NCBI GenBank assembly: GCA_001774395.1
Contig: MEZX01000002.1
Coordinates: forward strand, 96,753 to 160,752
DNA: 64,000 bases
Origin: Candidatus Berkelbacteria bacterium RIFCSPLOWO2_01_FULL_50_28
GTDB taxonomy: Bacteria > Patescibacteriota > UBA1384 > 2-12-FULL-50-11
Direction of reading: 5' to 3'
Numbering within the stretch: position 1 is the first letter of the stretch; each line of letters opens with the position of its first letter. Below, piece by piece: positions 19,886-48,305 of the stretch. Under the pieces are notes generated by a model. It ran no database searches. It had not been told where the DNA came from and saw nothing but the letters and a program-made list of their open reading frames with translations. The translations under genes and the position numbers were made by a program.

Positions 19886-19887
19886 AG

Positions 19888-28841: not shown

Positions 28842-28901
28842 GTTCCAGGTTCTCCATTGCTTGGAGAGGCCCTTTACGCTAGTTTGGAAAATAGGGTTAC
28901 T

Positions 28902-30086
28902 ATGCGAAAATTATTGATCAGTATCGTTATAATCAGTCTACTAACCATCTCGCTTAACATTCCCGAGCGGGCGCTAGCTTTTGATACCAGCTCGGACAAC
29001 TACCTTCGGGGCAAATACTACAATAACCTGGTTGGTGACGCTGATTTTATTGACGTTAACAGTATGACCGTCAGCCAGATCCAGGCCTTTCTAGTGAGCA
29101 AAGGCAGCTATCTCGCCCGTGCTCCTTCGAGCAAGCTTGGCTCGGGTGCCGGCGGCCGCAAGGCTTCTAGGATAATTTGGGACGCCTCACACGGTTATCG
29201 CGAAGCTTCGGGTACGTCCCGGGGCATAACGGTAACAAACACCGTCAGCCCGATGGTCCTGCTAGTGACGCTCCAAAAAGAGCAGAGCCTAATTACTCGA
29301 ACTACCTACGATTCGTGGGCGATGACCGCCTCCATGGGTTACGGCTGCCCCGATTCCGGCGGCTGCGACCCGACCTACAGAGGTTTCACAAATCAGGTTG
29401 AATGGGCGGCCTGGCAGATGCGCTGGAACTACGAGGCTTCCGGCAAGAATGAAGCTTGGTGGGACAGTAATTACCCGAACGGCTACCAGTACTTTGTGGG
29501 AAATACGGGCTCGTTTGGTTGGGGTAGCACCTACTACAACGTTATTTTCCGCAACAAATCGACTGGCTCGCTGTATCGCTACACGCCGCACGTCGGGTAC
29601 GGCAACTTCAACTTCTGGCGTTTAATGATTGATTGGTTCGACATCTCCCCGGTAACGCTAGGCGGCACAGTTCACTCAAGCGACGACCACGTGACCATCA
29701 GCGACACTACCTACCGCAACTTGGTAAAAATCAGCGGCTCCAAAGCTTCTAACTCGTTCGCTTACTACGGCAGTACTCTCCTTGCCGGCTCGGGCAAGAC
29801 GTCGTGGACTATCAGGTTTTCCCCGCAGGTTAGAAAACAGACTTACTACATCACCTACAAGAGTAGCGGCGGTACGACATTGGGAAGGAAAAAGATCATC
29901 ATCGATCGGCGCAAAGTGGGCGATGTAAACGGCGACGGTACCGTTGATTTGCTTGACGTCTCGCTGATGAGTGACGCTTGGGGCAAAGTCGTTCGAGACG
30001 ATGCCTCGTTGAATCTGAATCCAGAGGGCGATAGCGTGGTTGACTTGCTCGACATTTCATTGATGGCCAACAGCTATGAAGGCTAA
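28902..30086 (+). CDS. Secreted protein with a C-terminal dockerin-type repeat pair. The start is chosen at the signal-peptide Met; the track ORF starts at 28857.
   Basis: Signal peptide MRKLLISIVIISLLTISLNIPERALA. Two Ca-binding-like dockerin repeats DVNGDGTVDLLDVSLM and NPEGDSVVDLLDISLM. Confidence 0.6.
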   Translation: MRKLLISIVIISLLTISLNIPERALAFDTSSDNYLRGKYYNNLVGDADFIDVNSMTVSQIQAFLVSKGSYLARAPSSKLGSGAGGRKASRIIWDASHGYREASGTSRGITVTNTVSPMVLLVTLQKEQSLITRTTYDSWAMTASMGYGCPDSGGCDPTYRGFTNQVEWAAWQMRWNYEASGKNEAWWDSNYPNGYQYFVGNTGSFGWGSTYYNVIFRNKSTGSLYRYTPHVGYGNFNFWRLMIDWFDISPVTLGGTVHSSDDHVTISDTTYRNLVKISGSKASNSFAYYGSTLLAGSGKTSWTIRFSPQVRKQTYYITYKSSGGTTLGRKKIIIDRRKVGDVNGDGTVDLLDVSLMSDAWGKVVRDDASLNLNPEGDSVVDLLDISLMANSYEG

Positions 30087-30111
30087 TAGCGAAAGGTTAC
30101 AATTTGGGGTA

Positions 30112-31431
30112 ATGCGACGCTTTTTGCTCTTGGTAGCGATCTCTATTCTCAGTTTGACCCTGAACTTTTCTTGGCTGACTCACGCCTTGGCTGCCGGCTC
30201 GATCGGTGCCTACGGCGGCGGCAACTTTGTGACCGGTGAAACTTTCACAATTTCTGTGGTTGCGGGCGGTGCGACCTTTGATTCACTGCAAGGGGCTATC
30301 TCGGTTTCCGGTGTGGCTGATATCGTCGGATTCTCTGCCGGCGGTGCCACCTGGCTCCCAGGCAAATCTCCCAGTAACGGCGGCCAGTTTGTCGGCCTAA
30401 CCAGTGCCACTAGTAGCTTAACCGTGGCGACGATAACACTAAGCTCGAGCGCTGTCGGCTCGGGAGCCGTCTCGGTTTCCGGTGTCCGTTTAGCTTATTC
30501 GGGTGACGAAGTTGGTACTGGCGGTGGGACTGCCTATTACAACATCTCACGCGCCCCCACTCCTCCCGGCACGGTGGTCGTCTCTTCCTCAACACATCCA
30601 AACCAGAATAAGTTTTACGGCCGAACAACTGTTCAGCTCGCTTGGAAAGCTCCAGCAAACGGCGCTGATGGCTACGCGGTGGTGTTCGACAAGAAAAAAA
30701 CAACGGTGCCTGTCACGAAGATCACCACAACCAAGAGAACGGTAACGTATACAAAAGTAGAGCTGGGCACACACTACTTCCACATTCGCTCAACAAACGC
30801 TGACGGTTGGGGGCCGACGACCACTTTCCGAGTTAACGTCAAAGAGCAGCTCAATGATAATCTGGCTGTGCCGATAATCACGGGCCTTGAGAAACTGCCG
30901 GCGTTTGCAACCAATGTCGAGAACGGCACGGTCAGCGGGTTCAAAATGTTTGGCAATCAACCAGTGCTTACTGGCTACGAGCTTGAGCTGGCTTTCGACC
31001 CAGAAGGTAGGATTCCAGAGAAGCAGAAAACCTCCGTTTTGGTTGCCGCCGATGGTAGCTGGGAAATAGTATTCAACTCGCAGATACCAAGTGGGTTCTA
31101 TGAAGTCACGGCTGTCGCCAAGAAGATCACGACGATCACCCCGCAGTCCGAGCCGCTTAATATCGAGCTCTCGGTTGCCAACGGTGGCGAGGCCAAAGTA
31201 ATTAGCGCGGACGATTTGCCAAAGCCTGACCTGACAGTAACAGTGGCGGGAGTGACGTTTGCAACCAAACAACAGCTGTGGAAAGTTGTTGTCGCGGGGG
31301 CGGTGGCGTTACTGATGATTGCGGTCCTGGGCTACGCGGCCTCAATTTATTTTCGGCGTTGGCAGCGCAGAAAAATCTCGAAAAACGACGACGATTCGCC
31401 CAAGCCGAGCAATCGCGCCACCTTACGTTAA
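30112..31431 (+). CDS. Cell-surface protein with an N-terminal signal peptide, a beta-rich Gly/Ser-rich domain (possibly cohesin-like), a fibronectin-III-like domain and a C-terminal TM anchor with a basic tail. Alternative start at 30076.
   Basis: Signal peptide MRRFLLLVAISILSLTLNFSWLTHALA; C-terminal TM LWKVVVAGAVALLMIAVLGYAASIYFRRWQRRK. Confidence 0.55.
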   Translation: MRRFLLLVAISILSLTLNFSWLTHALAAGSIGAYGGGNFVTGETFTISVVAGGATFDSLQGAISVSGVADIVGFSAGGATWLPGKSPSNGGQFVGLTSATSSLTVATITLSSSAVGSGAVSVSGVRLAYSGDEVGTGGGTAYYNISRAPTPPGTVVVSSSTHPNQNKFYGRTTVQLAWKAPANGADGYAVVFDKKKTTVPVTKITTTKRTVTYTKVELGTHYFHIRSTNADGWGPTTTFRVNVKEQLNDNLAVPIITGLEKLPAFATNVENGTVSGFKMFGNQPVLTGYELELAFDPEGRIPEKQKTSVLVAADGSWEIVFNSQIPSGFYEVTAVAKKITTITPQSEPLNIELSVANGGEAKVISADDLPKPDLTVTVAGVTFATKQQLWKVVVAGAVALLMIAVLGYAASIYFRRWQRRKISKNDDDSPKPSNRATLR

Positions 31432-31480: not shown

Positions 31481-32953
31481 ATGTCTCCTTGGGGTAAAGT
31501 TGCCAGCTCTGTTGCGATTCAATATTTCGGTCGGACGCTTGGCCTATTAGTCTCGTTGGCCTCGACAGCGATCCTTACCCGAACGCTTGGCGTCGCTCTT
31601 TACGGTGAATACACAACAGCTCTTGCCATCGCGGCGCTGGTTGTAACTTTTGCCGATCTCGGATTTTTCTGGTCCACAATCAAGAGCCTGAACGTTGAAG
31701 GTGATGCCAAGACCATCGCCAGCGAGATCTCGGGCATCCGTTTTGTCGTTGCCTCAATACTGACGGCCCTAATGCTGTTAATCGTTTGGCAAACGAGCTA
31801 TCCGCTCGAGGTAAAGCAGGCGGTCAGCGTCTTGGGAATTTTTACGGTTTCTGGAGCGATGAACAACGTGCTGATCGCCGTTTTCCAGCAGAGCTACGCC
31901 ATGGTGACGCCGACTGTGGCCGAGGCGGCCAGCCGTATTGTTAACCTCGGGCTGATAATGCTTGGCTATCTGCTAGGCAAGGACCTCATCTGGTTTATTA
32001 GCGCTGTTAGTATCGCCTCGGTAACGGGGTTACTTATCAACTGGGCGGTATTGAGCTGGCGTAACGGCGTCATCTGGCCGAAAATAATCGGTTTCTCCTG
32101 GAAAAAGTACTACCGTTCGGTGGCGGTTATCGGCGCGGTGATGCTCTTTAACGCGCTCTATCTGAAAGTGGACGTGATCGTCCTCTCTGCTCTTAAGAGC
32201 TCGGTTGACGTTGGTATTTACGGAGCAGCGCAAAGGGTGATAGAGGTTGCGATGGTGTTTCAATCACTGTTTCTCGCGGCAGCTTTCCCCTTATTTCTGG
32301 CCCGCTTTCGCGAAGGATCGGCTCAATTTTCTCGTACGGTCACGGAAAGCCTGATGGTGGTCTTGGCTTTCGGGCTGCCGGTTGCCCTGGTCCTAGCGTT
32401 GTTTAGTGGCGGTTTGATTAACTTCATTGCTGGTCGGGAGTTTCTAGAGACGACTACGCTCGTAATAAATGGTACAGCGATCACGGCGGCAACAGTCTTA
32501 GCGGTTTTGAGCGCTTACGTCTTGCTGGCGCATGTCGGCGGGGTTATTGCTCTTGCTTTGCTGACGTCGGACCACTTGCGGTGGCTGTTTTGGGTGAACG
32601 TTGGAGCGTTCTTGGTTAATATCGGTATGAATTTGGTGCTGATCCCCCACTACTCTTACTTGGCCGCCGCCGCTATGACGGTCGTCACAGAGCTGATTAT
32701 CGTGGCGGCTAATTTTTACTATCTCTGGAGTCGGCATAGGCCTGCTATCAGCGGGAGCACTGTTGGACGGCTACTGGGTTCTGCCACGCTGGCCGGGCTA
32801 GTTGCCTTATTCTTACCGAGTCAAGCTCATGTATTAGTTAAGGTTGTAGTTACCGTTGCCCTGTACGGTACGGCAGTCTTCCTGACGGTCCCCGCTTTGA
32901 GAGCTCTTGTGGTCAGAGTCTTCCAGCCGCCAACGGAGGAGTCGCAGGGATGA
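31481..32953 (+). CDS. Polysaccharide biosynthesis protein / oligosaccharide flippase (MOP superfamily, Wzx-like).
   Basis: 490 aa, about 14 TM helices; N-terminal region is typical of Wzx/PST-family flippases. Confidence 0.7.
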   Translation: MSPWGKVASSVAIQYFGRTLGLLVSLASTAILTRTLGVALYGEYTTALAIAALVVTFADLGFFWSTIKSLNVEGDAKTIASEISGIRFVVASILTALMLLIVWQTSYPLEVKQAVSVLGIFTVSGAMNNVLIAVFQQSYAMVTPTVAEAASRIVNLGLIMLGYLLGKDLIWFISAVSIASVTGLLINWAVLSWRNGVIWPKIIGFSWKKYYRSVAVIGAVMLFNALYLKVDVIVLSALKSSVDVGIYGAAQRVIEVAMVFQSLFLAAAFPLFLARFREGSAQFSRTVTESLMVVLAFGLPVALVLALFSGGLINFIAGREFLETTTLVINGTAITAATVLAVLSAYVLLAHVGGVIALALLTSDHLRWLFWVNVGAFLVNIGMNLVLIPHYSYLAAAAMTVVTELIIVAANFYYLWSRHRPAISGSTVGRLLGSATLAGLVALFLPSQAHVLVKVVVTVALYGTAVFLTVPALRALVVRVFQPPTEESQG

Positions 32954-34455
32954 ATTTTTATCAAAGAGTAGTATCTCATCGTTATTTCTTTCTGGCGGCC
33001 AGCGTTTCGATCCTTCTAACTCAGCTCATATTGAGCTACTACGGCAATTTTAGGTACAACTACGATGTTGCCCCGGGGGACGACGTCTATAACCATCTGC
33101 GTTATATCGAGACTGCGCGGAGAAACCCGGAGTTCTTACCGACCCCTAGCTACCCGCCGGGGTTCCATTATCTAGTGTTGGGCGCTTCCCTGTTACTGAA
33201 CACAACGCCGTCCAATATCCTACTGTGGGGCTGGCCGATTCTGTTGGTGCTCTCTTCTCTAGCGGTGATGCTGCTGGCGAAAAAAGTTTTTGGTGCGCGA
33301 GTAGCTCTTGTGACCTTGGCACTTTACGCTTTGGTTTCGCTGCAGCCGCTCCAGACGGCCTACGATGGGACGCTGGCCAACCTGTTCGCCGGTAATGTTA
33401 TCATGCCTTTAGCTCTTATCGCGCTCATAAACCTCTGGAAAGATGAGGGCAGGTTGATCTGGCGAAACGCTCTGCTTTTCGCTTTGGCGGCGTTTCTGGT
33501 TGCCTACAGCCACCACCTCAGCGCGATAGTCCTGTTCGGTACCTTCCTCCTGGCTGGAGTGGCGAGATTTGGTTATCTCGCCGTCAAAAGCCGATTCTCC
33601 GATAAGAAGGCTGTTTATTGGCTCGGCACGATTGTCGGAGTCGGGGTTCTGTCGGTTGTCGGATATCTCTACTTGGACGTTCTCTCGCCGTTGCGTTCGG
33701 TCGTGGCTACCGCGATGCACTCGGTATCACCTGATCGCGTTTGGAAGCTGGGCTACTACGTGACGAGAATCGGTCCGTTGGTGGCTTTCTTTGGCTTTGT
33801 TGGCATGGCCTTGGTGGTACTCGGCAGTATTCGCGGGCGGTTTAAGTTCAGCAATCCGACCGGCCTGGCGGTTGTCTCTGCCTGGTTTGCGCTCTACTTT
33901 TTCGGCTCCCTGATAAGTGCTATCGGCGAACCCGAACGGTTGGGTCGGGACTGGGCGATGCCGGGAGCGATCATGGCCGGTGCGGCTGTCGTGATGATCT
34001 TTCGATACTTGAAGAAGCGGCCTGAGCTGCTACGTCTGGCGGCGGCGGCTTTTGCCATTTTCTTTGCCGTTGGATTTCTGGTGAAGCTCGATCGGCTAAC
34101 TAGCTACAACACTATGGTTAGATTCAGCCAGGCCGATAGAACCACCATGGAGCTCGTTCGGTCCGGTGCTCTCCCGACGCCAATCTATATCTGGCCGAAG
34201 CACCCGTACTGGAAGATCGTGGTCCCCGACCTAATCGCCTCGCGAACGGTTAGGATAGTGGAATCTTTCGCAGAGGCCAAAAAGGTTCTGCGCCAAAAAC
34301 GGGGCTGTCTGATCACCGGCTATAACAAACCAGGTACTTATCCGGAGCGTCTGCAGAATAACAGCCCCCTCATACGGCTGATGAAGGTTAAGGGCGTTAC
34401 CGCGCATTATCTGCTGGAGGATAAGGTAAAAATTTGGTACATTCTCTGTGACTAG
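32950..34455 (+). CDS. Polytopic membrane protein with a C-terminal soluble domain; candidate GT-C-fold, polyprenyl-phosphate-sugar-dependent (GtrC/PMT-like) glycosyltransferase.
   Basis: About 11 TM helices; acidic motif GDDVYNHLRY in the first extracytoplasmic loop; lies upstream of the GtrB-like GT2. Confidence 0.5.
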   Translation: MNFYQRVVSHRYFFLAASVSILLTQLILSYYGNFRYNYDVAPGDDVYNHLRYIETARRNPEFLPTPSYPPGFHYLVLGASLLLNTTPSNILLWGWPILLVLSSLAVMLLAKKVFGARVALVTLALYALVSLQPLQTAYDGTLANLFAGNVIMPLALIALINLWKDEGRLIWRNALLFALAAFLVAYSHHLSAIVLFGTFLLAGVARFGYLAVKSRFSDKKAVYWLGTIVGVGVLSVVGYLYLDVLSPLRSVVATAMHSVSPDRVWKLGYYVTRIGPLVAFFGFVGMALVVLGSIRGRFKFSNPTGLAVVSAWFALYFFGSLISAIGEPERLGRDWAMPGAIMAGAAVVMIFRYLKKRPELLRLAAAAFAIFFAVGFLVKLDRLTSYNTMVRFSQADRTTMELVRSGALPTPIYIWPKHPYWKIVVPDLIASRTVRIVESFAEAKKVLRQKRGCLITGYNKPGTYPERLQNNSPLIRLMKVKGVTAHYLLEDKVKIWYILCD

Positions 34456-34458
34456 ACG

Positions 34459-35145
34459 ATGAAATTAACCGTTGTTATCCCAGCATTTAACGAGGAGGAA
34501 ACCATTGCCGAGGTCATCAGCGCTATCCCGAAAAAAATCAGCGGGGTTTCTCAGATCGAGATAATTGTTGTTGACGACCAATCCAGGGACAAGACCGGGG
34601 AGATCGGCCGCTCTTTAGGGGCAACTGTCTTGCGCCATCGGCTGAATCTAGGAGCCGGCGGAGCGACGTTAACCGGAATTGATGCGGCCAGAAAACGCGG
34701 AGCGGATATGGTGATAACGATTGACGGCGACGGCCAGCACGACCCCAAAGAAATCGTCAAGTTAGTTCAAGCTCACCTCGAGAGCGGGGCGGATCTGGTT
34801 ATAGGTAGCCGATTTCTCTCCGATTCCCTAGAAAAAATGCCGGCCTTAAAGAACTTTGGTAATCGGGTAATGAACGGTATTACTTACGTGTTCAGCGGTA
34901 AGCATGTGACGGATTCGCAGTCGGGTTTTCGCCTGTTTGGGCGACGGCTAATAGCTGGTTTTGACCGTTTCACCACCAGCGGTTACGAATTCTGTTCGGA
35001 GACAATAATCAACACCAAGAAGATGGGTTTGAAAATCGCCGAAGTGCCGATTTCAACGATTTATTTCGAAGGCCGTCGCGGCCAGAACCCATTGAACGGC
35101 GTGAATATTCTCTTGAAACTAATCTATAAGACGGTCACGGGCTGA
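34459..35145 (+). CDS. GT2 polyprenyl-phosphate glycosyltransferase (GtrB / dolichyl-phosphate mannose synthase-like).
   Basis: VIPAFNEEETIAEVI...VVDDQSRDKT...ITIDGDGQHDP (DxD) ...DSQSGFR. Confidence 0.85.
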   Translation: MKLTVVIPAFNEEETIAEVISAIPKKISGVSQIEIIVVDDQSRDKTGEIGRSLGATVLRHRLNLGAGGATLTGIDAARKRGADMVITIDGDGQHDPKEIVKLVQAHLESGADLVIGSRFLSDSLEKMPALKNFGNRVMNGITYVFSGKHVTDSQSGFRLFGRRLIAGFDRFTTSGYEFCSETIINTKKMGLKIAEVPISTIYFEGRRGQNPLNGVNILLKLIYKTVTG

Positions 35146-35492
35146 TGTTAATTACACTCGCTAAAGTACTGGCGACGATTTTTGCCGCTTTGATAATCTC
35201 CAAGAGCATTTTGAGCTACAAGCAGCATAAGGAGAATCTGTTTCTGACCGCATTTTGGGTGATTACCTGGGGCGTCATTGTTCTGTTTGCGTTTTACCCG
35301 GACCTGATCGGCAGCCTCTTTGGCGAACGGAAAGTTGGTGTGGGCACCGTCTTAGGGATCGGACTGATGTTTGTCTACTTTGTCCTCTACCGAATTTATG
35401 TAAAAGCTGACAGAGTCGAACGAGAGCTTCAGAAATTGGTCCGAGAGCTTGCCGTAAAAGAAGGTGGCAGCAGTGACCCAAAAAACCCGTAA
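35145..35492 (+). CDS. Small membrane protein partnered with the GT2 enzyme (DUF2304/GtrA-like).
   Basis: 115 aa, 3 TM helices; ATGA overlap with the GT2 gene. Confidence 0.5.
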   Translation: MLITLAKVLATIFAALIISKSILSYKQHKENLFLTAFWVITWGVIVLFAFYPDLIGSLFGERKVGVGTVLGIGLMFVYFVLYRIYVKADRVERELQKLVRELAVKEGGSSDPKNP

Positions 35493-36438
35493 GGTTGTCT
35501 TTATTACCGGCTATCGACCTGGTGGGCCGTACTATTGGGCGGAGAAATTGGTAAAAAAAATTGGCGAGTTAGATTTGGGCTGGCGCGGCTCTCACCCCAA
35601 AACCCTTTGGCAAACTATCTATTCGGCGTTGATTGCGCCAAATGCCGATGTTGTCCACTCGACACTACCGGTGGCGTTTCATCTGTGGAGACGCCCGTTG
35701 GTGATGACGATCAAAGGTGATTTTGAGCGGGAGAAAGGACCGGGCTATCGCGGCTATCGACGAGCAATTGCCGCCGCCGATGCTGTTACCGTACCAAGCG
35801 AATTTATTAAGCGACAGTTAGGCCTCCACCAAGCGATAGTAATTCCCAACGGTTTCGACTTGCCTAACGCCGTCTCGCGACCTGAGACCGAGCCGGATGA
35901 CCCAATTAAGCTGTTAACGGTGACAAAGTTTCACTTTAAAGACAAAGCGAGCGGGGTGTTGAACTTGTATCGCATTCTGGAGTCCGTGGCCGGCCGATCA
36001 AACCGTCAGATAGTCTGGGACATTTTGGGAGACGGGGCTTTTCGCCGTGAGATCGAGTCGCAAGTAAAGAGTGAGAAAATCAAGATAAACTTCCGAGGTT
36101 TTGTTGACCCAAAGCCTTTCTATCAAAGCGCTGATGTCTTTCTTTATTACTCCGACCACGACAATATGCCTAACGCCATAATCGAAGCGATGGGCTACGG
36201 CTTACCTGTTATAAGCAACGATATCGGCGCCGTTGGCGAGATGATCGATGACGGCGTGAGCGGTTACCTCTGTCGTGACCAACAGGATTACACCGCGAAA
36301 CTTACCCAAATGCTAAAAACCCCCAGTGATTTGGCTGTACTCGGCCGTCAGGCGCGAGAGGTTGTGGCGACGCGGTTTGACAACGACGTCATTACGCGCA
36401 AATACCTAGAAATTTACGAACGGATAGTTACCAAATGA
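35464..36438 (+). CDS. GT4-family glycosyltransferase (GT-B fold).
   Basis: C-terminal EAMGYGLPVISNDIGAVGEMIDDGVSGYL (E-x7-E motif region). Confidence 0.75.
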   Translation: MAAVTQKTRKVVFITGYRPGGPYYWAEKLVKKIGELDLGWRGSHPKTLWQTIYSALIAPNADVVHSTLPVAFHLWRRPLVMTIKGDFEREKGPGYRGYRRAIAAADAVTVPSEFIKRQLGLHQAIVIPNGFDLPNAVSRPETEPDDPIKLLTVTKFHFKDKASGVLNLYRILESVAGRSNRQIVWDILGDGAFRREIESQVKSEKIKINFRGFVDPKPFYQSADVFLYYSDHDNMPNAIIEAMGYGLPVISNDIGAVGEMIDDGVSGYLCRDQQDYTAKLTQMLKTPSDLAVLGRQAREVVATRFDNDVITRKYLEIYERIVTK

Positions 36439-38516
36439 GGAGCGACTTACTTCTTGTGAACTTGCTTGTCTCGGCCGGCCTTCTAGTCGGCGCCGTGGTT
36501 GAACGAATAACTGGCTTTGCCGTCGTACAGAATGTTTTTGGTCTGGCAGCTTTTATTTTGCTTGGTTTCAACTTGGCGACGCTAGCAAGGTTCAAGAGTA
36601 TCGTCTCATCCGATACAAACGAAAATATAATCTTTGTACCGCTTTTTTCGGTTCTTGCCGTCACCGTTCTTGGAGCGCTGGCCCGCCTGGCCCACCTAGA
36701 CAAGCCTTATGTTTTAATTGCCGCGGTGGTCACAGTTAACCTTGCAGTGGCTTTTTTCCTCCTGCGTCTGGACAAACAAAAAGCAAGAACGAAAAAAATC
36801 GATTGGCCAAACATGGCCCGCCATACAGTGGAATTTATCGCCGTGCACCGAACGGTTCTGTGGCTGCTAGTAGGTTTTGGCGTTCTGATGTCACTGCATT
36901 TTCTGACGTACCGTTTTATCCCAGAGGCCGATAGCTACCGTCAGCTGATGGCGGTTAGTCAATACCAGGCCAGCTCCTCGCTGCCCGATCCAAGCCGTTC
37001 GTTTTTGCTGATTCTAACCTCGGCCATTAATTACCTGACCGCAATTAGTCCTTACGCGCTCTTCAAGTTTGTGTTTCCGCTCCTCGGGTTCTCGTACATT
37101 GCAACCGCGTTTCTTCTTAGTCCGCTGCTGAAACATAAGTTTAGCCTGGGTTGGTGCGCGCTCTTGGCGATTAGCGCGCCAGTAGTTATCGAGGAGCTGC
37201 TTGTTACAAGGCCGCAGACACTAGTCATGGTCTTCTTCCCCATTACTCTCTATCTGCTCTACACTGCCCTCAAACGTCGTAGCTCCAACTATCTGTTCAT
37301 CGCTCTAGCTCTGAGCTTGACGCTACTGCTCTCCCACGAAACGGCCTGGTTACTCGTGATTACAGGGGCGGTAACCCTTCTCGTTTTCTATCGAGAATGG
37401 ATTAAGTCCCGCTGGCTTCCATTTACCTTCTGGGCCATTCTAGCGCTACTCGCTGTCACCCTCTTTGCTCCGCCACGCATTCTGGCCAAACTGCTGTCTC
37501 AGTTTATTGAAGCGAAAAACGCCTTGGCGGCGCACGGTGTTGACTGGTGGTTTATTGGCTCTTACACCAACGTTGACCAAAACAGGGTCGGCTGGCCGGG
37601 CATTAGTGCCCTGTATTACTACGCTTACAACCTGGGACTTGCCCTACCGGTACTATCTGTCGTCTTGCTTGCCAAAAGGCGTGTCCTTGAAAGATTGGAC
37701 ATCGCCTACGCCCCCTACGTCATTAGCGGTGGGCTCGCCTTTGCGATTGCTGAGATTCTGCCAAGGTTTAGGGTCTATTTCCTTCCGGACCGAGTCTGGC
37801 CGTTTATGGTCGCCTCACTTGCACCGATACTCGTTTATTACTGTATAAGGCTTGAATGGAAAGGCTGGTTGCGCCGCCTGGTTATCATTAGCGTCACGGT
37901 CTCGTTGGCTGCTAGCCTTGGGCTTAGTGCGCTCAAACAGGGGCGAGTTTCAAAGTCCGAGTACCAGGCCGCTTCGTGGCTGGCTAACAATAGCGGGCAG
38001 TCGAGCCTGGTTGTCAGCCAATCTGGGAACGGAGTTTTCATCAGATATTTTGCCGAAAGAAAGCTCGTCAGTTCGGATCGGCGATTCTTTTACGATCAAG
38101 ACAGCCAAGAGATCCGAGCTCTGATTGGCAAGATTAGGCCTGTCTCATACAACAGGGCTGAGCTTGAACATCAGCGTTTAGCGATCCACAAAAAGATGAG
38201 ATCGGCCCTTAACGAGTACGAACTGGCGGAGGACCCCGTTGTGGCAGAGCGGTTCTACCTGAGGCTAGCGGACCTGAAGAGAGGGATTGATAGGTTGGGT
38301 ATGCTCATCGAACAAACAAAGCGGCCGCTCTCGAGCGTGCCCGATGTATATATTCTCTACTCGCTAGATAAGTTTAACACTATCTATCGTTATCGAGCGT
38401 GGTGGATGGATCAGAACTTCTACCGGGCGGAAACCGAGTGGTTTGATACACACCCTGAGTTATTCTCCCAAGTTTACGACAACGGCCAGGTGCGGATCTG
38501 GAAATACAAAAAGTAG
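36435..38516 (+). CDS. Large polytopic membrane protein (693 aa), candidate GT-C-like glycosyltransferase. Paralog A of a tandem pair.
   Basis: About 12-14 TM helices plus a C-terminal soluble domain. The C-terminus ...FSQVYDNGQVRIWKYKK is homologous to the next gene's ...FKKIFDNGAVKVWRVKI. Confidence 0.5.
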   Translation: MRSDLLLVNLLVSAGLLVGAVVERITGFAVVQNVFGLAAFILLGFNLATLARFKSIVSSDTNENIIFVPLFSVLAVTVLGALARLAHLDKPYVLIAAVVTVNLAVAFFLLRLDKQKARTKKIDWPNMARHTVEFIAVHRTVLWLLVGFGVLMSLHFLTYRFIPEADSYRQLMAVSQYQASSSLPDPSRSFLLILTSAINYLTAISPYALFKFVFPLLGFSYIATAFLLSPLLKHKFSLGWCALLAISAPVVIEELLVTRPQTLVMVFFPITLYLLYTALKRRSSNYLFIALALSLTLLLSHETAWLLVITGAVTLLVFYREWIKSRWLPFTFWAILALLAVTLFAPPRILAKLLSQFIEAKNALAAHGVDWWFIGSYTNVDQNRVGWPGISALYYYAYNLGLALPVLSVVLLAKRRVLERLDIAYAPYVISGGLAFAIAEILPRFRVYFLPDRVWPFMVASLAPILVYYCIRLEWKGWLRRLVIISVTVSLAASLGLSALKQGRVSKSEYQAASWLANNSGQSSLVVSQSGNGVFIRYFAERKLVSSDRRFFYDQDSQEIRALIGKIRPVSYNRAELEHQRLAIHKKMRSALNEYELAEDPVVAERFYLRLADLKRGIDRLGMLIEQTKRPLSSVPDVYILYSLDKFNTIYRYRAWWMDQNFYRAETEWFDTHPELFSQVYDNGQVRIWKYKK

Positions 38517-38598
38517 GTGCAGCCGTTACTTAACTTTCGCCTCTGTTCTGGTATGATTCCTAGGAATGCAGTTTATTTTAACCTCTAAAAACTGATCG

Positions 38599-40545
38599 AT
38601 GTGGCTTATCGCCGTCGTCGTTGTTAACGCCCTACTTTTCTCGTTCCTTCTCTCGAGGTGGCATAAGGATAGGCTCTATTCTTTGAGCTTTGCGTTCTAC
38701 TACTTAATGATAGCCTGGCCGTTTTTATCCTGGGTGACGGCCGCGTTTCTGCCTGTACTTAACACCGCGCTGATCCTGTCGACACTGCTGACAACGGGGC
38801 TGCTATTAGGTAGTGTGCTGCTCTCTAGCAGACTTAACCTGGGCTCTGCGATGCACGATGTCAGAGTTTGGTTGGGCCAGTCGTTCTCCAGACACAGTCC
38901 CTTGTCGGTGGCTCTTTGGTTGGGCTTGCTCCTAGCACTGCTTGTCCCTGTTATTACTTACCGTTTCATCCCAGGACTAGACACTTACAAGTACCTAAAC
39001 GTTGTGAACTATATGGTTGACGTCGGTCAGTATCCCACGAGTATGGCCGTAGAGTTCAGTAGTGCGAACTGGTCTTATCCGCCGCTGATGCAGTACCTCT
39101 CTCACGGGTTGTCTTATCTGGGAGTAGCCCCGTATGTATTCTTCAAATATTTCGGTGTGCTTATCTTTTCTTTAGCGCTGTTCCCGTTTCTCCAACTGGT
39201 TAAGAGGTTTGTTGAAAAAAGGACAGTGGTTGTCTTGGCGATTATCGCCTTCTTTGCAACGCCGGCGATATTTTCCGAGCTACAAGTTGTTCGGCCGCAA
39301 CTGGTTATGTTCTTCCTCGCCCCGCTGTCGCTCGTGCTGATGATCGATTACCTAGAGACTAAGAGCAAAATACCGCTATTTGTCGTGGCGGCCTCAGCGC
39401 TAATTGGTACTGTCTACCACACTTTCCTGACGGTAGTTCTATTTATTCCGCTTGGTGTTGGGGTACTAGTAAAGAACTACGGCTGGATAAAGAGTAATAA
39501 ACCCAAGTTCTTGCTGGGCCTAGCCGTTACGGCGCTGGCTTTAGTCCCGTACTATTTTTTGCTTGACCTGCCAGCGAAGTTCGGTTGGCTATTCAAGATT
39601 ATCTTTACTCGCTCTGGTGAGCTAACGTTGCATAGTCCGTACTCGTTGAAAACCTACCTTGCTACCATCGGCATATTTACCGTCGGGCTCTGTTGGCTCG
39701 CTTTGGTTGGCTTGAAGGATAGGGCCCATTTGAAGAAAGCGATCATCCCAGCCTCCTTCTTCGCTCTCTTCTTTTTTGTGCTTGAGATATGGACGCGGCT
39801 TGGCTTCTCATTTCTGCCCGATCGATCGTTCCCCTTCATTGTCATCGCCCTAATTCCGCTCATTGCGCACGGTGTGGACTTGCTATGGAAAGACCGGCGT
39901 ATACAGGCTGTGGTAACGGTCGCGTTGCTCCTGCTACTGGCAAGTACGGCTTACATCGAGTCCCTCGACACTCGACAGTATGTGACGAGTAAAGAGGCTG
40001 AAGCGGCTCAGTTTATTAAAGAAAACTTTCCTCAGAATACGCTCATCGTTACTCAGGGGTCGAACTACCCACTGACTAACTACTTCGCTGCCCGTCGAGG
40101 TTCCTTTAAGGTTAGCTTTAGCCCACGGGATGTTTTCTATGCCGAGAATTCTGCGTCTGCCTTTAAAGTAATCGAGAGCTACATTGTAAGCACGAAGACA
40201 TATCGTCAGCAGTTAGTGGAGCGCATCGCTCCGCATCAAGCGCAGATATTAGAGCTGCTGAAGAGCAAAAGCTTTCGCGATAGCACCGTTTTTTCAAAAA
40301 TATCAGGTATCAACAATAAAACCGAAAATATCTATTTGGCCCTAGCGAAGCGTTCTTTTCGCGAGCCCGAGCCCGAAGAAGTCCTGATTCTTTTTTCTAC
40401 TGATAAGCTGGCTCGTTCGATCAACACCGACAGATACAAGTACAAGAATTTTCATGACGCGGACCTGTCGCTATTCGATGACGCGAGATTTTTCAAGAAG
40501 ATTTTTGACAACGGTGCGGTGAAGGTCTGGCGCGTCAAGATCTAA
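38599..40545 (+). CDS. Large polytopic membrane protein (648 aa), candidate GT-C-like glycosyltransferase. Paralog B.
   Basis: Same architecture and shared C-terminal motif as 36435-38516. Confidence 0.5.
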   Translation: MWLIAVVVVNALLFSFLLSRWHKDRLYSLSFAFYYLMIAWPFLSWVTAAFLPVLNTALILSTLLTTGLLLGSVLLSSRLNLGSAMHDVRVWLGQSFSRHSPLSVALWLGLLLALLVPVITYRFIPGLDTYKYLNVVNYMVDVGQYPTSMAVEFSSANWSYPPLMQYLSHGLSYLGVAPYVFFKYFGVLIFSLALFPFLQLVKRFVEKRTVVVLAIIAFFATPAIFSELQVVRPQLVMFFLAPLSLVLMIDYLETKSKIPLFVVAASALIGTVYHTFLTVVLFIPLGVGVLVKNYGWIKSNKPKFLLGLAVTALALVPYYFLLDLPAKFGWLFKIIFTRSGELTLHSPYSLKTYLATIGIFTVGLCWLALVGLKDRAHLKKAIIPASFFALFFFVLEIWTRLGFSFLPDRSFPFIVIALIPLIAHGVDLLWKDRRIQAVVTVALLLLLASTAYIESLDTRQYVTSKEAEAAQFIKENFPQNTLIVTQGSNYPLTNYFAARRGSFKVSFSPRDVFYAENSASAFKVIESYIVSTKTYRQQLVERIAPHQAQILELLKSKSFRDSTVFSKISGINNKTENIYLALAKRSFREPEPEEVLILFSTDKLARSINTDRYKYKNFHDADLSLFDDARFFKKIFDNGAVKVWRVKI

Positions 40546-41321
40546 CTACTCGCCAAACCTAGATGTTTGGGTTTACGAGCCCGCCCGCCCCGCTCCATGA
40601 CCAACCGAAAGTGGCTGTGCAAGAAGTAAGAGGCGACAAAATTGCTACAAAATATCTGTCCGAACTGACGAAGTTGGCTCGGTGGTAACCAAGTAATTGT
40701 CGGTTTGCGAAACCCGGCGCCTGACAGCAGCTTAACCCAAACGTCCGGACTCTGGTGCTTGTGCCACTCGATACTGCGTACAAACGGATTTTTCAGCCCA
40801 ACAGTTGGGAAAAAGTTGTGGCGCGAAGCATCAGTTACCACCAACTTTGACCCAGGTTTAGCAATCTTGGCCAGCTCCTTAAAGATCTCTTTGTACGAGC
40901 GTTGGGACTCCCTATTTTCTCGCAAGGTAATGCAGGCATCTTCGTCTAGGTGGTTTATAGAGTGGTGAAGCAAAAGGACATCGAACTTCTCCCCTGTTGC
41001 TCGGTACTCCTGAAATGTTTTGGCGATCATCTTAATCTGCGGCAGCTTTAGAACGCCCGCAACCTTGCGGAATTTTTTTATGAACCCGCTCCGCGAGCCA
41101 GCCGCCTCTGGCTCCAAACAGACTACCTTGGATGCGCCAGCAAGGGCAGCGTGAAAGCCGTATGTGCCTGCTCCTGCCCCGATGTCGATCACGAGCTTAT
41201 CTTTTAGAACAACGTCGCGAAAGAGACTGCGAAGATAGTACTCCAAATTATTCGAAGATTTGCACAGCTTCTCTCGTTGACAGACGGACAGAAATTTCTT
41301 CATCGGAGACCGCTTGGTCAT
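40542..41321 (-). CDS. Class I SAM-dependent methyltransferase.
   Basis: Motif I VIDIGAGAGTYGFHAALAGASKVVCLEPE. Confidence 0.7.
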   Translation of the reverse strand: MTKRSPMKKFLSVCQREKLCKSSNNLEYYLRSLFRDVVLKDKLVIDIGAGAGTYGFHAALAGASKVVCLEPEAAGSRSGFIKKFRKVAGVLKLPQIKMIAKTFQEYRATGEKFDVLLLHHSINHLDEDACITLRENRESQRSYKEIFKELAKIAKPGSKLVVTDASRHNFFPTVGLKNPFVRSIEWHKHQSPDVWVKLLSGAGFRKPTITWLPPSQLRQFGQIFCSNFVASYFLHSHFRLVMERGGRARKPKHLGLASS

Positions 41322-41343
41322 TTCTCTTCTTTTACCCTAAATT

Positions 41344-42468
41344 TCACTCGTTGCGAAGTAGCTCGGCAACGGCCGACTTGTATCGGGCGGTGTTTCTGAC
41401 GATATCGTGATTTTCCAGAGCATAACGGTAGCCGTTCTCGGAGAGTGATTTCCAGAGAGCGGGATTGCCCAGTATTTCTGAAAGTTGAGTTGCCATTTTC
41501 TTGTAATCACCCCCTGCACAAAACCCACACTTCTCTTTGTCGAGAAAGTTGTCCGGGTTTACACCAAGCGAAAGAATTGGGGTGGCGCTGGCCGCCGCTT
41601 GAACGAAGGTGTTGGGGAACCCCTCGAAGGTGGAAGTACTCACAAGCACCTTGGCCTGGCCGTAATACTCTGTAATCTGCTCAAATGGTACTTTTCCCAA
41701 AAGTGTCAGATTTGAGATGGCTTCTGCCTCTTCTGTTATCTTCTCGGCGAGAGCCTGGTTATGGGCATGCGGTGGCATAATCATGACAAACTTCTCGCTC
41801 GGGAAATCCCGGGCTAGTTGCAGAAACATCTCCGGTTGCTTTAGCGGCTGAGAGGAGGCCACCCAGAGCACACTCTCGCGTTTTTGGTTGACGTCACGCG
41901 CGGGGATGGTTAGGACATTTTTTAAAACAATGCTCTCGCGATGGAACTTCTCCTTCAGTATTTGCTGATGTTGACTGTTCTGGGTAAAAATTAGATCGGC
42001 GTTTGTTAGGCCAAACTTGAACATTCTCTCTTCAACGAAGGTTCGGTTGCGCAATCCCCCTTTCAGATCGGCCTCGGAAGCAGTCATATAGATAAACTTT
42101 TTGCGGGCTTTTCGGCAGTAAAGGGCAATTATCCCAGCTGAAGCGCCGCTAGCACGCTGTTGGTAAACATCGGCCCGGACGGTCTTTAGCAGCCGCCAGA
42201 GACGTATGGCGAAAGATATCTGACGCCATAGCGCCGGACCTTGCTTCGATTCTGCAGCGAGCTTGTAGACGGTAATACCGTTGAACGTTTCAACTGGTGG
42301 CTGTCCGTAGTCGCCAACTATAAAACTAACGACAAATCCAGGGTCTTTGCTAAGCTCGCTTGAGAGCAGGAACGATTGCAGCTCGGCGCCGCCGAACGCC
42401 CCGCTAACGGTCGGGTTGAAAAGTGGGTAGGCGCCGGGAGAGAAGAAGCAGATTTCAGTCGGTTTCAT
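41344..42468 (-). CDS. GT4-family glycosyltransferase.
   Basis: EGFPNTFVQAAASATPILSLGV C-terminal GT-B motif. Confidence 0.7.
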   Translation of the reverse strand: MKPTEICFFSPGAYPLFNPTVSGAFGGAELQSFLLSSELSKDPGFVVSFIVGDYGQPPVETFNGITVYKLAAESKQGPALWRQISFAIRLWRLLKTVRADVYQQRASGASAGIIALYCRKARKKFIYMTASEADLKGGLRNRTFVEERMFKFGLTNADLIFTQNSQHQQILKEKFHRESIVLKNVLTIPARDVNQKRESVLWVASSQPLKQPEMFLQLARDFPSEKFVMIMPPHAHNQALAEKITEEAEAISNLTLLGKVPFEQITEYYGQAKVLVSTSTFEGFPNTFVQAAASATPILSLGVNPDNFLDKEKCGFCAGGDYKKMATQLSEILGNPALWKSLSENGYRYALENHDIVRNTARYKSAVAELLRNE

Positions 42469-43820
42469 CGCTCCCTCTCTCTGCTAAGCAGGGACTTCAC
42501 GTAAACATACTTGCCGTTTTTAGTTTTTGGTATTGTTTCAACCTGTTTCCAGACTATTCGGCAAGATTCACCCATCACTAAACGGATTTTTGTTTCGATG
42601 TCTCGGCGGTTCTGAGCCGGAAGTTCTCCAAGTGGTACGAAAAGTATCTCAATTTCGTCACGTGTTTTTTGAACCACCTGGAACTGCCTTATCTGGCCTT
42701 GGTTCAAGGTGACCCCGACAAAATGGATGAAGAATTCGGATGGGACGGGGCTACCGTCGATGGCGGCCAAGCAATCTGTCACGCGGCCGGTGAGCTCCTT
42801 GAGAGTCGGAGTTGGAATCTTGCAGTCACAAGTTTGCGGCCCAAGCTCGGCCAGATCACCGATTTCGTAACGAATGAACGGGAACGAATAGTTGTGAAGG
42901 TTGGTAACGATTACTCTCCCCTTAGTGGCTGGCTGACCTCGGTCGTCTAGGATCTCGATAAAGTTATTGAACGGGAGCTGGTGCATCAGCCCATTCTGGC
43001 ACTCGCCGGCGATATCGCCCACTTCTCTGGTGCCGTAGAAGTCGTAAACCGGAGCCTGGAACGTCTTGCTGATGGATCTTCGCATATACTCGTATAAGTT
43101 CTCCGCGGCGCTAATAACAAGATGAGGAGAGTGTACTGTGAGACTATTTCTGCTGATGTAATCGGCCAGCTCAAACAGCGCTCCGGAATAGCCGCGGATC
43201 ACGTACGGTTTGTAGCTGTTAATTTTCTCCACGTACGAGCTCATGCTCGCCTCGTCCATCTTGAAGGCGTTAAGGACTACGGTGTTGCGCAAATAACTCA
43301 TAATCTTTTTCTTGAATCCCGTTTTGGCGCGCAATAGATCTGCTTCCGAGCCCCAGAGGATGATTTTCTTCACAGCGTCTTCATCCACTCCTAGTACGTT
43401 GGAGTAGTAATACTTGTTAGCGGCATTCTTCCACTTGGTGTATCTATCGTCGTGGATGAATTTAACAGGCTCACCAGTACTGCCACCGGTTCTTTTGTAG
43501 TACCAACGTCGAGTGTTCAGGTCGTGCGAAGTTAGGCTTTCAAAGTTTGAGCGAATGATATCCTTGGTAAGCAGTGGGATTTGGTCAAACTTAGTTAAGT
43601 CCACTTGGTCGCGGATAACAACACCAGCCTCGCGCAGAATCTTTTTGTAGTAAGGCACGTTCTGGTAGGCGTGAACGAGCAGCTCTTTTATCCTTTCCTC
43701 TCGCAACTCCTCCAGCTGGTTTTTACCAATCGCTCGGTTAATCTGCTCATATTCTTTTGAGTAGTCGTGGCGCCCGATTTTTAGGACCAATTTCCAGAGT
43801 AGTTGTTTCATTCTATGCAA
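42465..43820 (-). CDS. Adenylate-forming enzyme of the phenylacetate-CoA ligase / coenzyme F390 synthetase (CapK-like) family.
   Basis: AMP-binding motif YYKRTGGSTGEPVKF (cf. SSGTTGKP); size is typical of CapK-like proteins in capsule loci. Confidence 0.65.
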   Translation of the reverse strand: MHRMKQLLWKLVLKIGRHDYSKEYEQINRAIGKNQLEELREERIKELLVHAYQNVPYYKKILREAGVVIRDQVDLTKFDQIPLLTKDIIRSNFESLTSHDLNTRRWYYKRTGGSTGEPVKFIHDDRYTKWKNAANKYYYSNVLGVDEDAVKKIILWGSEADLLRAKTGFKKKIMSYLRNTVVLNAFKMDEASMSSYVEKINSYKPYVIRGYSGALFELADYISRNSLTVHSPHLVISAAENLYEYMRRSISKTFQAPVYDFYGTREVGDIAGECQNGLMHQLPFNNFIEILDDRGQPATKGRVIVTNLHNYSFPFIRYEIGDLAELGPQTCDCKIPTPTLKELTGRVTDCLAAIDGSPVPSEFFIHFVGVTLNQGQIRQFQVVQKTRDEIEILFVPLGELPAQNRRDIETKIRLVMGESCRIVWKQVETIPKTKNGKYVYVKSLLSRERER

Positions 43821-45099
43821 AGCGGTTTTTCATAATAGTCGATATCATCACACCAACAGCGTAGGCCAGAATGAAGGCAAGCACCGCTCCCATGATATGG
43901 AGGCGCGGGATTAGCAGGAAGCCAAATAGCAGATTTATCCCGGCGATAAAAACGGTAATGAGGTTTGAAGTACGAATTCCGCGGAGTCCTTCTGAGGCAA
44001 ACGTCCAAATATAGAGCGTGTAATGAATGATCAAGGCACCGGCAACGGAGAACGCCAAGATTAGCGGTAGCTCGATCGGGTATGAGGCACCGTAAATTTT
44101 TAGAATTATCAGCTGGACTATGAAAAGACCCGGGATGACCGTGCCGTACAAAAACGGCGAGAGCCGTTTGATCTTGCTAAATATCGGCTGACGGGTAGAA
44201 AACTTGGCGGCCGTCGGGAAGAAAACCGATATGAAAACGGCGTTTAGAATGAAGGCGATATTTATGGATGAGGCGTAGTAGGCGCTATAAATCCCCACTT
44301 CTCCGACAGTTAGGTAGCCATTTATCAGCAGTTTCCCGGTCTGCACCAAGAAAGTCGAGGCAATTCCACCTAAGATTCCAGCGGCACCGTACATTAGGAG
44401 GTTTTTAGCAAAGGGAGGGCTGAAGCTGGTTGGCGAGAAGTAGCGTCGCAGATTTATGAAGCTACCAATAATTACAATACCGAAAGCGGCAAACACGGTG
44501 TAAATGGCACTGGTGAAAGATATTAGGTTGAACTGAATTAGTATGAGCAGGCCGACCAAACCGGCGATGCCGTAGAGCGCGTAAAGGTAGGACAGCTGCT
44601 TGAACATATTCAGGCTTCGCAGGCCACCTTTCGTTAACGAATCGAGCGTGTACAGAAATGCGTAGGCAATTGCCAGGTAGAATACTAGGCTTGGCACGTT
44701 GAAGATCCTTAGGAATCCTTCCCGAAAGGCGATGTAGAGCAGTATTGATACGAGACTTGCTGCAAAGAATATCAGAATGGCTGAGGAGATGTATTTTTTC
44801 CGCTCCCCATCGCTTGTCTGCTCAGCATTATATTTAGTAAGCGCGGTTGATAAACCAAGCGACATCGGTATGTAAAGAAACAGCGCTACCGAATTGACCA
44901 GGGAGAACCTACCGTATTGGTCTGGCCCAAGAACCCGCCCGAGCAGTACCTGAAACACAAAGCCTAGTACGAGTGATACGCCATAACCAATAGAAACAAT
45001 CCCCAGGTTTTTCGTGAAGTCCTTAGCCTCGCCAGACATTTTTTCGCCAAAAACCAGCGCGTAGATCCTGCCTACCAAACGGGCGGCTACTCCCTTCAT
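43813..45099 (-). CDS. Oligosaccharide flippase (MOP/Wzx-like), the second one in the cluster.
   Basis: 428 aa, about 12-14 TM helices, typical Wzx topology. Confidence 0.65.
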   Translation of the reverse strand: MKGVAARLVGRIYALVFGEKMSGEAKDFTKNLGIVSIGYGVSLVLGFVFQVLLGRVLGPDQYGRFSLVNSVALFLYIPMSLGLSTALTKYNAEQTSDGERKKYISSAILIFFAASLVSILLYIAFREGFLRIFNVPSLVFYLAIAYAFLYTLDSLTKGGLRSLNMFKQLSYLYALYGIAGLVGLLILIQFNLISFTSAIYTVFAAFGIVIIGSFINLRRYFSPTSFSPPFAKNLLMYGAAGILGGIASTFLVQTGKLLINGYLTVGEVGIYSAYYASSINIAFILNAVFISVFFPTAAKFSTRQPIFSKIKRLSPFLYGTVIPGLFIVQLIILKIYGASYPIELPLILAFSVAGALIIHYTLYIWTFASEGLRGIRTSNLITVFIAGINLLFGFLLIPRLHIMGAVLAFILAYAVGVMISTIMKNRFA

Positions 45100-45866: not shown

Positions 45867-45881
45867 TCTTCTCCTAGGTAA

Positions 45882-47000: not shown

Positions 47001-47004
47001 CTAC

Positions 47005-48300: not shown

Positions 48301-48305
48301 CTTAT

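Follow-up and report, generated by a model that had tools for sequence, protein, structure and literature searches.

A Berkelbacteria operon encodes a predicted polyprenyl-phosphate sugar synthase together with three putative GT-C membrane glycosyltransferases

Three large polytopic membrane proteins, which we call M1, M2 and M3, are encoded around one small sugar-donor synthase in a 64,000-nucleotide (nt) stretch of DNA from a groundwater organism, Candidatus Berkelbacteria bacterium RIFCSPLOWO2_01_FULL_50_28 (GenBank assembly GCA_001774395.1, contig MEZX01000002.1, positions 96,753 to 160,752; hereafter, the window), and this raises the question of what they do. A first-pass annotation had read positions 32950-40545 as a lipid-linked extracytoplasmic glycosylation system, in which a glycosyltransferase family 2 (GT2) polyprenyl-phosphate-sugar synthase and a small membrane partner would supply three candidate glycosyltransferases of the GT-C fold. 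We addressed this question by combining profile searches, structure prediction, topology analysis and a comparison of related loci, and the results favor a system of this general kind.

Operon and synthase module

Seven genes lie on the plus strand between 31481 and 40545, and all of their open reading frames (ORFs) were confirmed at these coordinates (TM, transmembrane helices; aa, amino acids):

31481-32953, +: Wzx-like (MOP/Polysacc_synt) polytopic protein, about 13 TM, Pfam Polysacc_synt E 2.3e-15, above cutoff; candidate flippase and GacK analogue
32950-34455, +: M1, 501 aa, putative GT-C-fold membrane glycosyltransferase (AlphaFold2 and Foldseek), 11 TM and a 119-aa α/β domain predicted to be external
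34459-35145, +: GT2, soluble GT-A protein of 228 aa, predicted polyprenyl-phosphate sugar synthase of GacI/PpgS type (Pfam, NCBIfam and PDB matches)
35145-35492, +: DUF2304 protein, 115 aa, 3 TM, GacJ/Rv3632 type (Pfam DUF2304 E 4.2e-13)
35464-36438, +: GT4a, predicted cytoplasmic family 4 glycosyltransferase (GT4; Pfam Glyco_trans_1_4 E 1.8e-22)
36435-38516, +: M2, 693 aa, putative GT-C fold, 15 TM and a 192-aa domain predicted to be external (AlphaFold2 and Foldseek)
38599-40545, +: M3, 648 aa, divergent tandem paralog of M2 (BLASTP and family profile)

The junctions between these genes measure, in order, -4, +3, -1, -29, -4 and +82 nt, and because of this spacing we treat 31481-40545 as one operon. 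The ORFs of the first-pass annotation stand, and the extent of its unit does not: the operon begins one gene earlier, with the Wzx-like gene, whose stop (32953) overlaps the M1 start by 4 nt. The GT2 and DUF2304 genes overlap by 1 nt, and the 82 nt between M2 and M3 form the operon's sole real intergenic gap, with a consensus promoter-like site at 38530-38557. The start of M3 is ambiguous, since the ATG at 38599 gives the 648-aa protein annotated by NCBI and the internal Met37 gives a 612-aa protein (P0003, the gene call of another assembly).

The GT2 protein matched Pfam Glycos_transf_2 (E 8e-26), and its top NCBIfam match was PpgS (NF058614), aligned end to end (E 2e-39) at 135.3 bits against an equivalog cutoff of 370, which makes it a homolog that falls short of equivalog membership. 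It also matched AglJ in NCBIfam and, in the PDB, the Pyrococcus furiosus dolichol-phosphate mannose synthase (DPMS; 5mlz, E 1.3e-20) and ArnC. Its DxD motif is D89-G-D91 (DGD, residues 89-91), and a search of the protein for a hydrophobic or TM segment returned none. Judged by these matches, GT2 is homologous to the polyprenyl-phosphate sugar synthases PpgS, AglJ, DPMS and ArnC, and PpgS as the best family match hints at an N-acetylhexosamine donor. The small partner scored 49.9 bits against a Pfam DUF2304 cutoff of 25.5, has three hydrophobic helices and gave no GtrA-family match in the Pfam scan; by sequence it is a DUF2304 protein of the GacJ/Rv3632 type, which stimulates and anchors a TM-less synthase, and not a GtrA-type flippase. 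Both the DxD-bearing synthase and the small membrane partner proposed in the first-pass annotation are thus borne out.

M1 and M2 models match GT-C glycosyltransferases

No Pfam or NCBIfam model was matched at its cutoff by M1, M2 or M3. M2 gave a match to Pfam PMT_2 (PF13231; ArnT/RgtA-D-like, GT83-type) of 18.9 bits (E 0.0019), under the gathering threshold of 26.1, and M1 and M3 gave none to this model; across 70 members of the M2/M3 family Pfam matches were sporadic, with PMT_2 reaching E<0.01 in 5. The automated UniRef name of M3 is 'Glycosyltransferase RgtA/B/C/D-like domain-containing'. When the three proteins and their family profiles were searched by sequence against the PDB, there was no GT-C match save a marginal one: at E 0.021, the M1 profile weakly matched the N terminus of Archaeoglobus fulgidus AglB, and this alignment puts M1 D45 opposite AglB D47, a metal-binding catalytic residue of that enzyme. 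A sequence match of M1 to an aquaporin (E 0.016) was at chance level.

Structures were modeled with AlphaFold2 for M2 from a 97-sequence alignment (pLDDT 91.1, pTM 0.91) and for M1 from a 10-sequence alignment (pLDDT 85.7, pTM 0.84). In Foldseek searches of the PDB, the best match of M2 was PglB (E 2.3e-6), accompanied by yeast and human STT3, DPY19, AftA, ArnT (TMt 0.5) and ALG9, and that of M1 was STT3 (E 5.8e-8), accompanied by AglB, PglB, ArnT, ALG9, AftA and Pmt4. These GT-C matches all had a probability of 1.00, except M2 with ALG9 (0.91), and every structural match of either model above 0.9 was a GT-C glycosyltransferase. The models thus support a GT-C fold for M1 and M2, and M3 is assigned to the same fold by its paralogy to M2. 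The comparison with GT-C structures that had been suggested earlier hence returned GT-C enzymes, and transporters, which had been named as the contrary outcome, reached a probability of at most 0.21 and a TM-score of at most 0.20.

Conserved acidic residues are predicted on the outer face

In the AlphaFold2 models M1 has 11 TM followed by a 119-aa soluble C-terminal α/β domain, and M2 has 15, made up of a 4-TM N-terminal extension and an 11-TM core, followed by a 192-aa C-terminal domain; hydropathy and the alignment to M2 give M3 about 14 TM and, likewise, a soluble C-terminal α/β domain. The earlier estimate of 11-14 TM plus a soluble C-terminal domain was thus roughly right. With the N terminus placed inside, lysine plus arginine account for 9 of 32 residues in inside short loops and 10 of 116 in outside ones in M1, and for 18 of 65 and 10 of 126, respectively, in M2, i.e., 28% inside versus 8-9% outside in both proteins. 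This clear positive-inside bias therefore places all conserved motifs and the C-terminal domains of M1 and M2 outside the cell, and the acidic motifs, whose location the first-pass annotation had asked about, land in extracytoplasmic loops of the modeled helices.

Each protein has an acidic residue directly after the first TM of the core: D166 in M2 (FIPEAD; nt 36930-36932), invariant in 97 sequences; D128 in M3 (nt 38980-38982); and D44/D45 in M1 (APGDD; nt 33079-33084), a candidate catalytic pair in which D45 is invariant and D44 is present in at least 90% of 10 sequences. Other invariant features are RPQ, H301, E440, R444 and R453 in M2 and QPLQT..DG, SHH and GEPERLGRD in M1. The C-terminal domain of M1 also has a nearly invariant cysteine pair, C453/C500, which fits an external location of this domain.

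M1 is remotely related to M2 and M3, and M3 is a divergent duplicate

M2 and M3 aligned by BLASTP at 27% identity over 572 columns (E 4e-30), in agreement with their earlier description as tandem paralogs. The C-terminal motif that they had been said to share, FSQVYDNGQVRIWKYKK in M2 (nt 38463-38513) and FKKIFDNGAVKVWRVKI in M3 (nt 40492-40542), is real and is kept family-wide as (V/I)Y.xxG(V/I)xIWK, with the Trp present in 98%. By profile comparison M1 is itself a remote homolog of these two: in hhalign it aligned to the M2/M3 family with 96.9% probability (E 1.8e-10, 372 columns; M1 7-414 on M2 129-530), and the M2-family hidden Markov model (HMM) matched M1 at E 1.6e-6 and M1 homologs of other loci at E 1e-16 to 1e-18. 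The motifs correspond as well, with APGDD of M1 paired with FIPEAD of M2, QPLQT with TRPQT, SHH with SHE, and GEPERLGRD with AEILPR...LPDR. In our reading of the DSSP strings of the models, the C-terminal domains of M1 and M2 share the secondary-structure order H-E-H-E-H...E-H-E-E, and that of M2 has an extra helical hairpin insertion of about 60 residues.

As a yardstick for the divergence of M3, we used the 48 columns conserved at 80% or more in the rest of the M2/M3 family, of which M2 keeps 46 and M3 keeps 25; the family HMM scores are 617 and 358 bits, respectively. M3 retains D128, E227, R232-P-Q234, H274, E396, R400, P407 and R409, which include the candidate catalytic residues, and has lost R188 and nearly all of the external-loop motif WFxxYxNxDGxxxGWPGxxxxYYGYNLG. 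A second family member was sought in 19 other loci, and none was found. Because no second copy occurs in these loci and the candidate catalytic residues are nonetheless kept, we regard M3 as an intact, divergent, lineage-specific duplicate; the remodeled external loop suggests that it probably differs from M2 in acceptor site or linkage specificity.

The adjoining arm of glycan genes

Downstream of the operon, and convergent with it, lies a second arm of the glycan locus (40542-50453), mostly on the minus strand and ending in one plus-strand gene:

40542-41321, -: methyltransferase
41344-42468, -: GT4b
42465-43820, -: PaaK/F390-synthetase-like adenylate-forming enzyme, 451 aa, soluble (NCBIfam DVU_1553 family E 1.8e-28; no Pfam match)
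43813-45099, -: second Wzx-like protein
45096-45866, -: methyltransferase
45882-47000, -: GT4c
47005-48300, -: TviB-like UDP-N-acetylhexosamine 6-dehydrogenase (418 bits)
48306-49256, -: SDR epimerase/dehydratase
49335-50453, +: GT4d

The 451-aa ORF at 42465-43820 was considered as a Wzy-like polymerase and rejected, since it is soluble and resembles PaaK and F390 synthetase; it lies near the TviB-like, uronic-acid-forming dehydrogenase and may act on a uronic acid of the glycan by amidation or acylation. In the window we found neither a priming phosphoglycosyltransferase nor a Wzy-like protein, nor any other polytopic protein that might serve in the extracytoplasmic step of a Wzx pathway.

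The M2/M3 family and its neighbors in Patescibacteria

A HMMER scan of 1.84 billion cluster representatives with a profile of M2, M3 and P0002 returned 460 representatives (50% identity clusters) at E<=1e-3, 261 of them at E<=1e-30; most are about 690 aa long and were matched over their full length. The full scan was needed because hydrophobic words saturate the candidate list of a word index; a word-indexed homolog search had returned 2 proteins each for M2 and for a three-sequence profile. Related loci were sought among GTDB species representatives with a 12-sequence subset and two peptide patterns (the same scan with a three-sequence alignment found nothing), and all 16 loci recovered belong to metagenome-assembled genomes (MAGs) of Patescibacteria: Saccharibacteria, Berkelbacteria, Moranbacteria, the 'WS2' genome ADurb.Bin280 and unclassified members. 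One member of a family cluster is labeled as a Flavobacterium sp. MAG, which we suspect to be mis-binned. By these searches M2 is the canonical, conserved member of a family that is apparently restricted to Patescibacteria.

We analyzed the neighbors of the family genes in six-frame ORFs of 20 loci (the window and 19 others). In 11 of the 19 other loci, the M2-family gene has a short GT2 gene paired with a DUF2304 gene no more than 10 kb away. These loci belong to Berkelbacteria, Saccharibacteria, Moranbacteria and further Patescibacteria, and the order GT2-DUF2304-GT4-(GT4)-M2 recurs. M1 homologs occur in five loci, each with a Wzx1-type gene within 3.5 kb, and M1 stands directly upstream of GT2-DUF2304 in the window and in loci L006 and L009. 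A GT4a ortholog also adjoins M2 in L013, where it comes immediately before M2, and in L009 and L010, where it comes immediately after. In the Berkelbacteria locus L013 the order is GT2-DUF2304-GT4c-GT4a-M2-GT4b-Wzx2, on one strand, and because these genes are contiguous there we read the two arms of the window as one ancestral locus. Separate Wzy_C proteins are encoded in L002 and L003.

In L003 (jgi Ga0272448_1000673), synteny between 16702-22091 and window positions 49335-55071 runs past the glycan genes, with GT2-DUF2304-GT4d followed by an H+-pyrophosphatase and a VanW/PG_binding_4 protein in L003 and GT4d, H+-pyrophosphatase and VanW in the same order in the window. L003 has, in addition, GT-C-like genes (PMT_2, DUF6798), its Wzy_C protein and a GtrA-family gene, all absent from the window.

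Comparison with known systems

Rush et al. (bioRxiv 10.1101/180810) described how the GlcNAc side chain of the group A carbohydrate is added in Streptococcus pyogenes: GacI makes GlcNAc-P-undecaprenol and is bound and stimulated by GacJ, a DUF2304 protein with three TM; the GT-C enzyme GacL moves GlcNAc to polyrhamnose, and for the Wzx-type GacK a role as lipid flippase is proposed. They also point out that PpgS is stimulated by Rv3632, the homolog of GacJ. Rismondo, Gillis and Gruendling (2021, PMC8035078) class GacIJKL as 'type b', the second type of multi-component transmembrane glycosylation system, note that GT-C components are often unrecognizable by sequence, and provide in Listeria monocytogenes GttA a precedent for one donor synthase serving more than one acceptor or transferase. 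The Berkelbacteria operon resembles GacI/GacJ/GacK/GacL in that a TM-less GT-A synthase, a 3-TM DUF2304 protein, a Wzx-family protein and a polytopic GT-C protein with an external acidic motif are encoded together. It differs in having three predicted GT-Cs rather than one, from families without a Pfam model, in the extra N-terminal TM bundle and external domain of about 190 aa in M2 and M3, in the lack of rhamnan genes in the window and in its Patescibacteria host.

The Mycobacterium tuberculosis system of PpgS (Rv3631), Rv3632 and Rv3779, which puts galactosamine on arabinogalactan, shares with ours the DUF2304 partner and a synthase that GT2 matches end to end. Its last step is done by a GT-C enzyme, and in mycobacteria decaprenyl-phosphoryl arabinose and polyprenyl-phosphomannose are used by several GT-C enzymes. 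It differs in that GT2 remains at 135 bits against the 370-bit cutoff and in the presence of a Wzx-type gene in our operon, and no sequence similarity of M1-M3 to a described Rv3779 model was detected.

GtrA/GtrB/GtrC and CsbB/GtcA/YfhO follow the same logic of a polyprenyl-phosphate-sugar synthase, flipping, and an external polytopic transferase. Membership in GtrABC was rejected, however, since the small protein is DUF2304 and not GtrA (PF04138) and GT2 lacks C-terminal TM helices; there was also no match to YfhO. The three-component, lipid-linked logic of the first-pass annotation thus survives through the homology of GT2 to polyprenyl-phosphate-sugar synthases, and its choice of GtrABC and Ppm1/Pmt as models gives way to GacIJKL and PpgS/Rv3632/Rv3779, which are closer. 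The oligosaccharyltransferases STT3, PglB and AglB (GT66) provide the best structural matches and share the Asp after TM1 and an external C-terminal α/β domain; they differ in a core of 13 TM rather than 11 and in much larger C-terminal domains, and sequence identity to them is 11-18%. Membership in this group was rejected because the motif WWD[YWF]G is absent from M1, M2, M3 and all 107 aligned sequences (97 of the M2/M3 family, 10 of the M1 family).

A proposed mechanism and its alternatives

From the genes present and their order, together with homology, fold, topology and the conserved linkage, we infer a lipid-linked sugar system, to which we assign a probability of about 0.6, in which the synthase would charge the carrier, a Wzx-like protein would flip it and M1, M2 and M3 would transfer the sugar outside the cell to distinct sites. 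The TM-less GT2, held and activated at the membrane by the 3-TM DUF2304 protein, would put one sugar from a nucleotide-sugar on polyprenyl phosphate at the cytoplasmic face, and the Wzx-like protein encoded just upstream of M1 would carry the polyprenyl-phosphate-sugar to the outer leaflet. M1, M2 and M3, with their conserved acidic and basic residues and C-terminal domains on the outer face, would then move the lipid-borne sugar to external acceptors. The likeliest acceptor would be an acidic, methylated glycan that the neighboring genes (GT4s, TviB-like dehydrogenase, second Wzx) would build, with cell-surface proteins as the alternative. The purpose suggested in the first-pass annotation, decoration of surface proteins or a wall polymer at several sites or with several sugars, may fit such a system. 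The donor named here, the part given to Wzx, the acceptors and the sharing of a single donor by all three enzymes are proposals, and the use of a polyprenyl-phosphate-linked donor by M1-M3 is supported through one line of evidence, their linkage to GT2-DUF2304.

Several observations weigh against this scheme. The GT2-DUF2304 pair was undetected in L015 and L019 despite full 10-kb flanks (as it was in short or edge-truncated contigs), and the M2-family gene there adjoins a GT4 or a TviB-like dehydrogenase instead. The TM-scores of M1 and M2 against solved structures are modest (0.4-0.58), and the top fold matches are oligosaccharyltransferases, which use oligosaccharides linked through pyrophosphate and not monosaccharides linked through phosphate. 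The PpgS score is so far under its cutoff that this match leaves the sugar undefined, and the flipping of a polyprenyl-phosphate-monosaccharide by a Wzx-type protein is itself only a hypothesis in the group A Streptococcus literature (bioRxiv 10.1101/180810).

The main alternative is that one or more of the three proteins, above all M1 with its ever-present Wzx neighbor, would be oligosaccharyltransferase- or ligase-like. Such an enzyme would take a GT4-built, Wzx-flipped oligosaccharide from polyprenyl (pyro)phosphate and attach it en bloc to a wall polymer or a protein of the surface, with the GT2-DUF2304 product used by some of the three enzymes or by none. PglB, STT3 and AglB lead the fold matches of both models, the M1 profile weakly matches the AglB N terminus, the window has two Wzx-like and four GT4 genes and no Wzy-like protein, a Wzx1-type gene accompanies every M1 homolog within 3.5 kb, and in L015 and L019 M2 stays with the GT4 or TviB-like gene when the GT2-DUF2304 pair is missing. 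We nevertheless consider en bloc transfer unlikely: none of the 107 aligned sequences contains WWD[YWF]G, there are 11 core TM and not 13, the C-terminal domains are small, monophosphate-donor enzymes (ArnT, AftA, ALG9) are also significant in Foldseek, no priming phosphoglycosyltransferase was seen in the window, and L002 and L003 carry Wzy_C proteins of their own. A broader form of the idea, that the M2/M3 family and/or the Wzx-accompanied M1 family is an unrecognized bacterial class of PglB/AglB-like oligosaccharyltransferases or ligases that dispenses with WWDYG, appears doubtful to us; if it were true, Wzx-flipped glycans would be attached to pili, S-layer-like proteins or the wall, shaping the host-contact surface of ultra-small episymbionts. 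It is similarly improbable that the three GT-Cs build an external oligo- or polysaccharide chain stepwise from a single polyprenyl-phosphate-sugar, one linkage per paralog, in the manner of the mycobacterial Emb/Aft or Mpt enzymes. Three related GT-Cs with one donor synthase in one operon, AftA among the significant structural matches, and an M3 acceptor-side loop remodeled in a way consistent with a different linkage would all suit such a chain, but most related genomes have one M2-family gene, with or without one M1, so that three-step elongation is not conserved, and the locus is already rich in cytoplasmic GT4s and Wzx export. It is extremely improbable, in our view, that M1, M2 and M3 are polytopic proteins without enzymatic function, such as transporters, whose clustering with glycosylation genes is incidental. 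Their failure to reach any Pfam or NCBIfam cutoff and the chance-level aquaporin match of M1 would allow it, but structural matches above 0.9 are without exception to GT-Cs and none to transporters, invariant residues of the kind typical in GT-C active sites (Asp, Arg and His) lie on the outer face, and synteny with glycan genes is kept across Patescibacteria.

Other features of the window

Directly upstream of the operon (28857-31431, +) are genes for two secreted proteins that are possible glycosylation targets, one of 409 aa that combines a signal anchor with a dockerin-like C terminus and one of 451 aa that is Ser/Thr-rich and has an fn3 domain and a C-terminal TM anchor. Surface proteins with dockerin and fn3 domains are essential in Saccharibacteria (PMC10633639). 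The window also contains pilus or secretion genes, namely a T4SS_pilin-like gene (20160-21242), a gene for a 526-aa protein without a Pfam match (21235-22815) and a T2SSE/PilB-type ATPase gene (23220-24728, -).

A recF-like gene (7383-8432), dnaN (8433-9521) and dnaA (9752-11152), on the minus strand, with yidC (12068-12808, +), mark an origin neighborhood at 7383-12808, which therefore places the glycan locus about 20 kb from the chromosomal origin. A polytopic protein of 378 aa (13000-14136, +) gave a weak match to the UbiA prenyltransferases that stayed below threshold (E 5.8e-7; 29.5 bits, cutoff 34.2), and NCBIfam returned nothing for it; UbiA-type enzymes make the decaprenyl-phosphate-ribose donors of mycobacterial GT-C arabinosyltransferases. 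At 919-6522 (+) a 1471-aa ORF without a Pfam match precedes a gene (5335-6522) whose product has a C39-like cysteine peptidase domain.

Significance

Two GT-C sequence families without a curated model are new here, as are the predicted 15-TM architecture with its distinctive external domain and the occurrence of three predicted GT-C enzymes in one operon, in a bacterium whose genome is very small; a literature search for GT-C enzymes in Patescibacteria found no paper. The logic of the system was already known from streptococci and mycobacteria, and the UniRef name of M3 hints at a GT-C-like domain. The proposed mechanism thus follows the established scheme of lipid-linked extracytoplasmic glycosylation and overturns no principle, and we see the result as a sound annotation of moderate curiosity rather than a surprise.

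Much of bacterial diversity falls within the Patescibacteria (Candidate Phyla Radiation, CPR), which combine minimal genomes with a life attached to other cells; to our knowledge, their surface chemistry is essentially unknown. The glycan locus described here, about 19 kb, takes up about 3% of the organism's longest contig (629 kb). In the genetically tractable relative Southlakia epibionticum, one predicted exopolysaccharide biosynthesis gene is essential and two adjacent genes give a growth deficit when inactivated (PMC10633639). Given this importance, the family offers concrete candidates, with specific putative catalytic residues, for experiments on CPR surface glycans, which may mediate attachment to the host.

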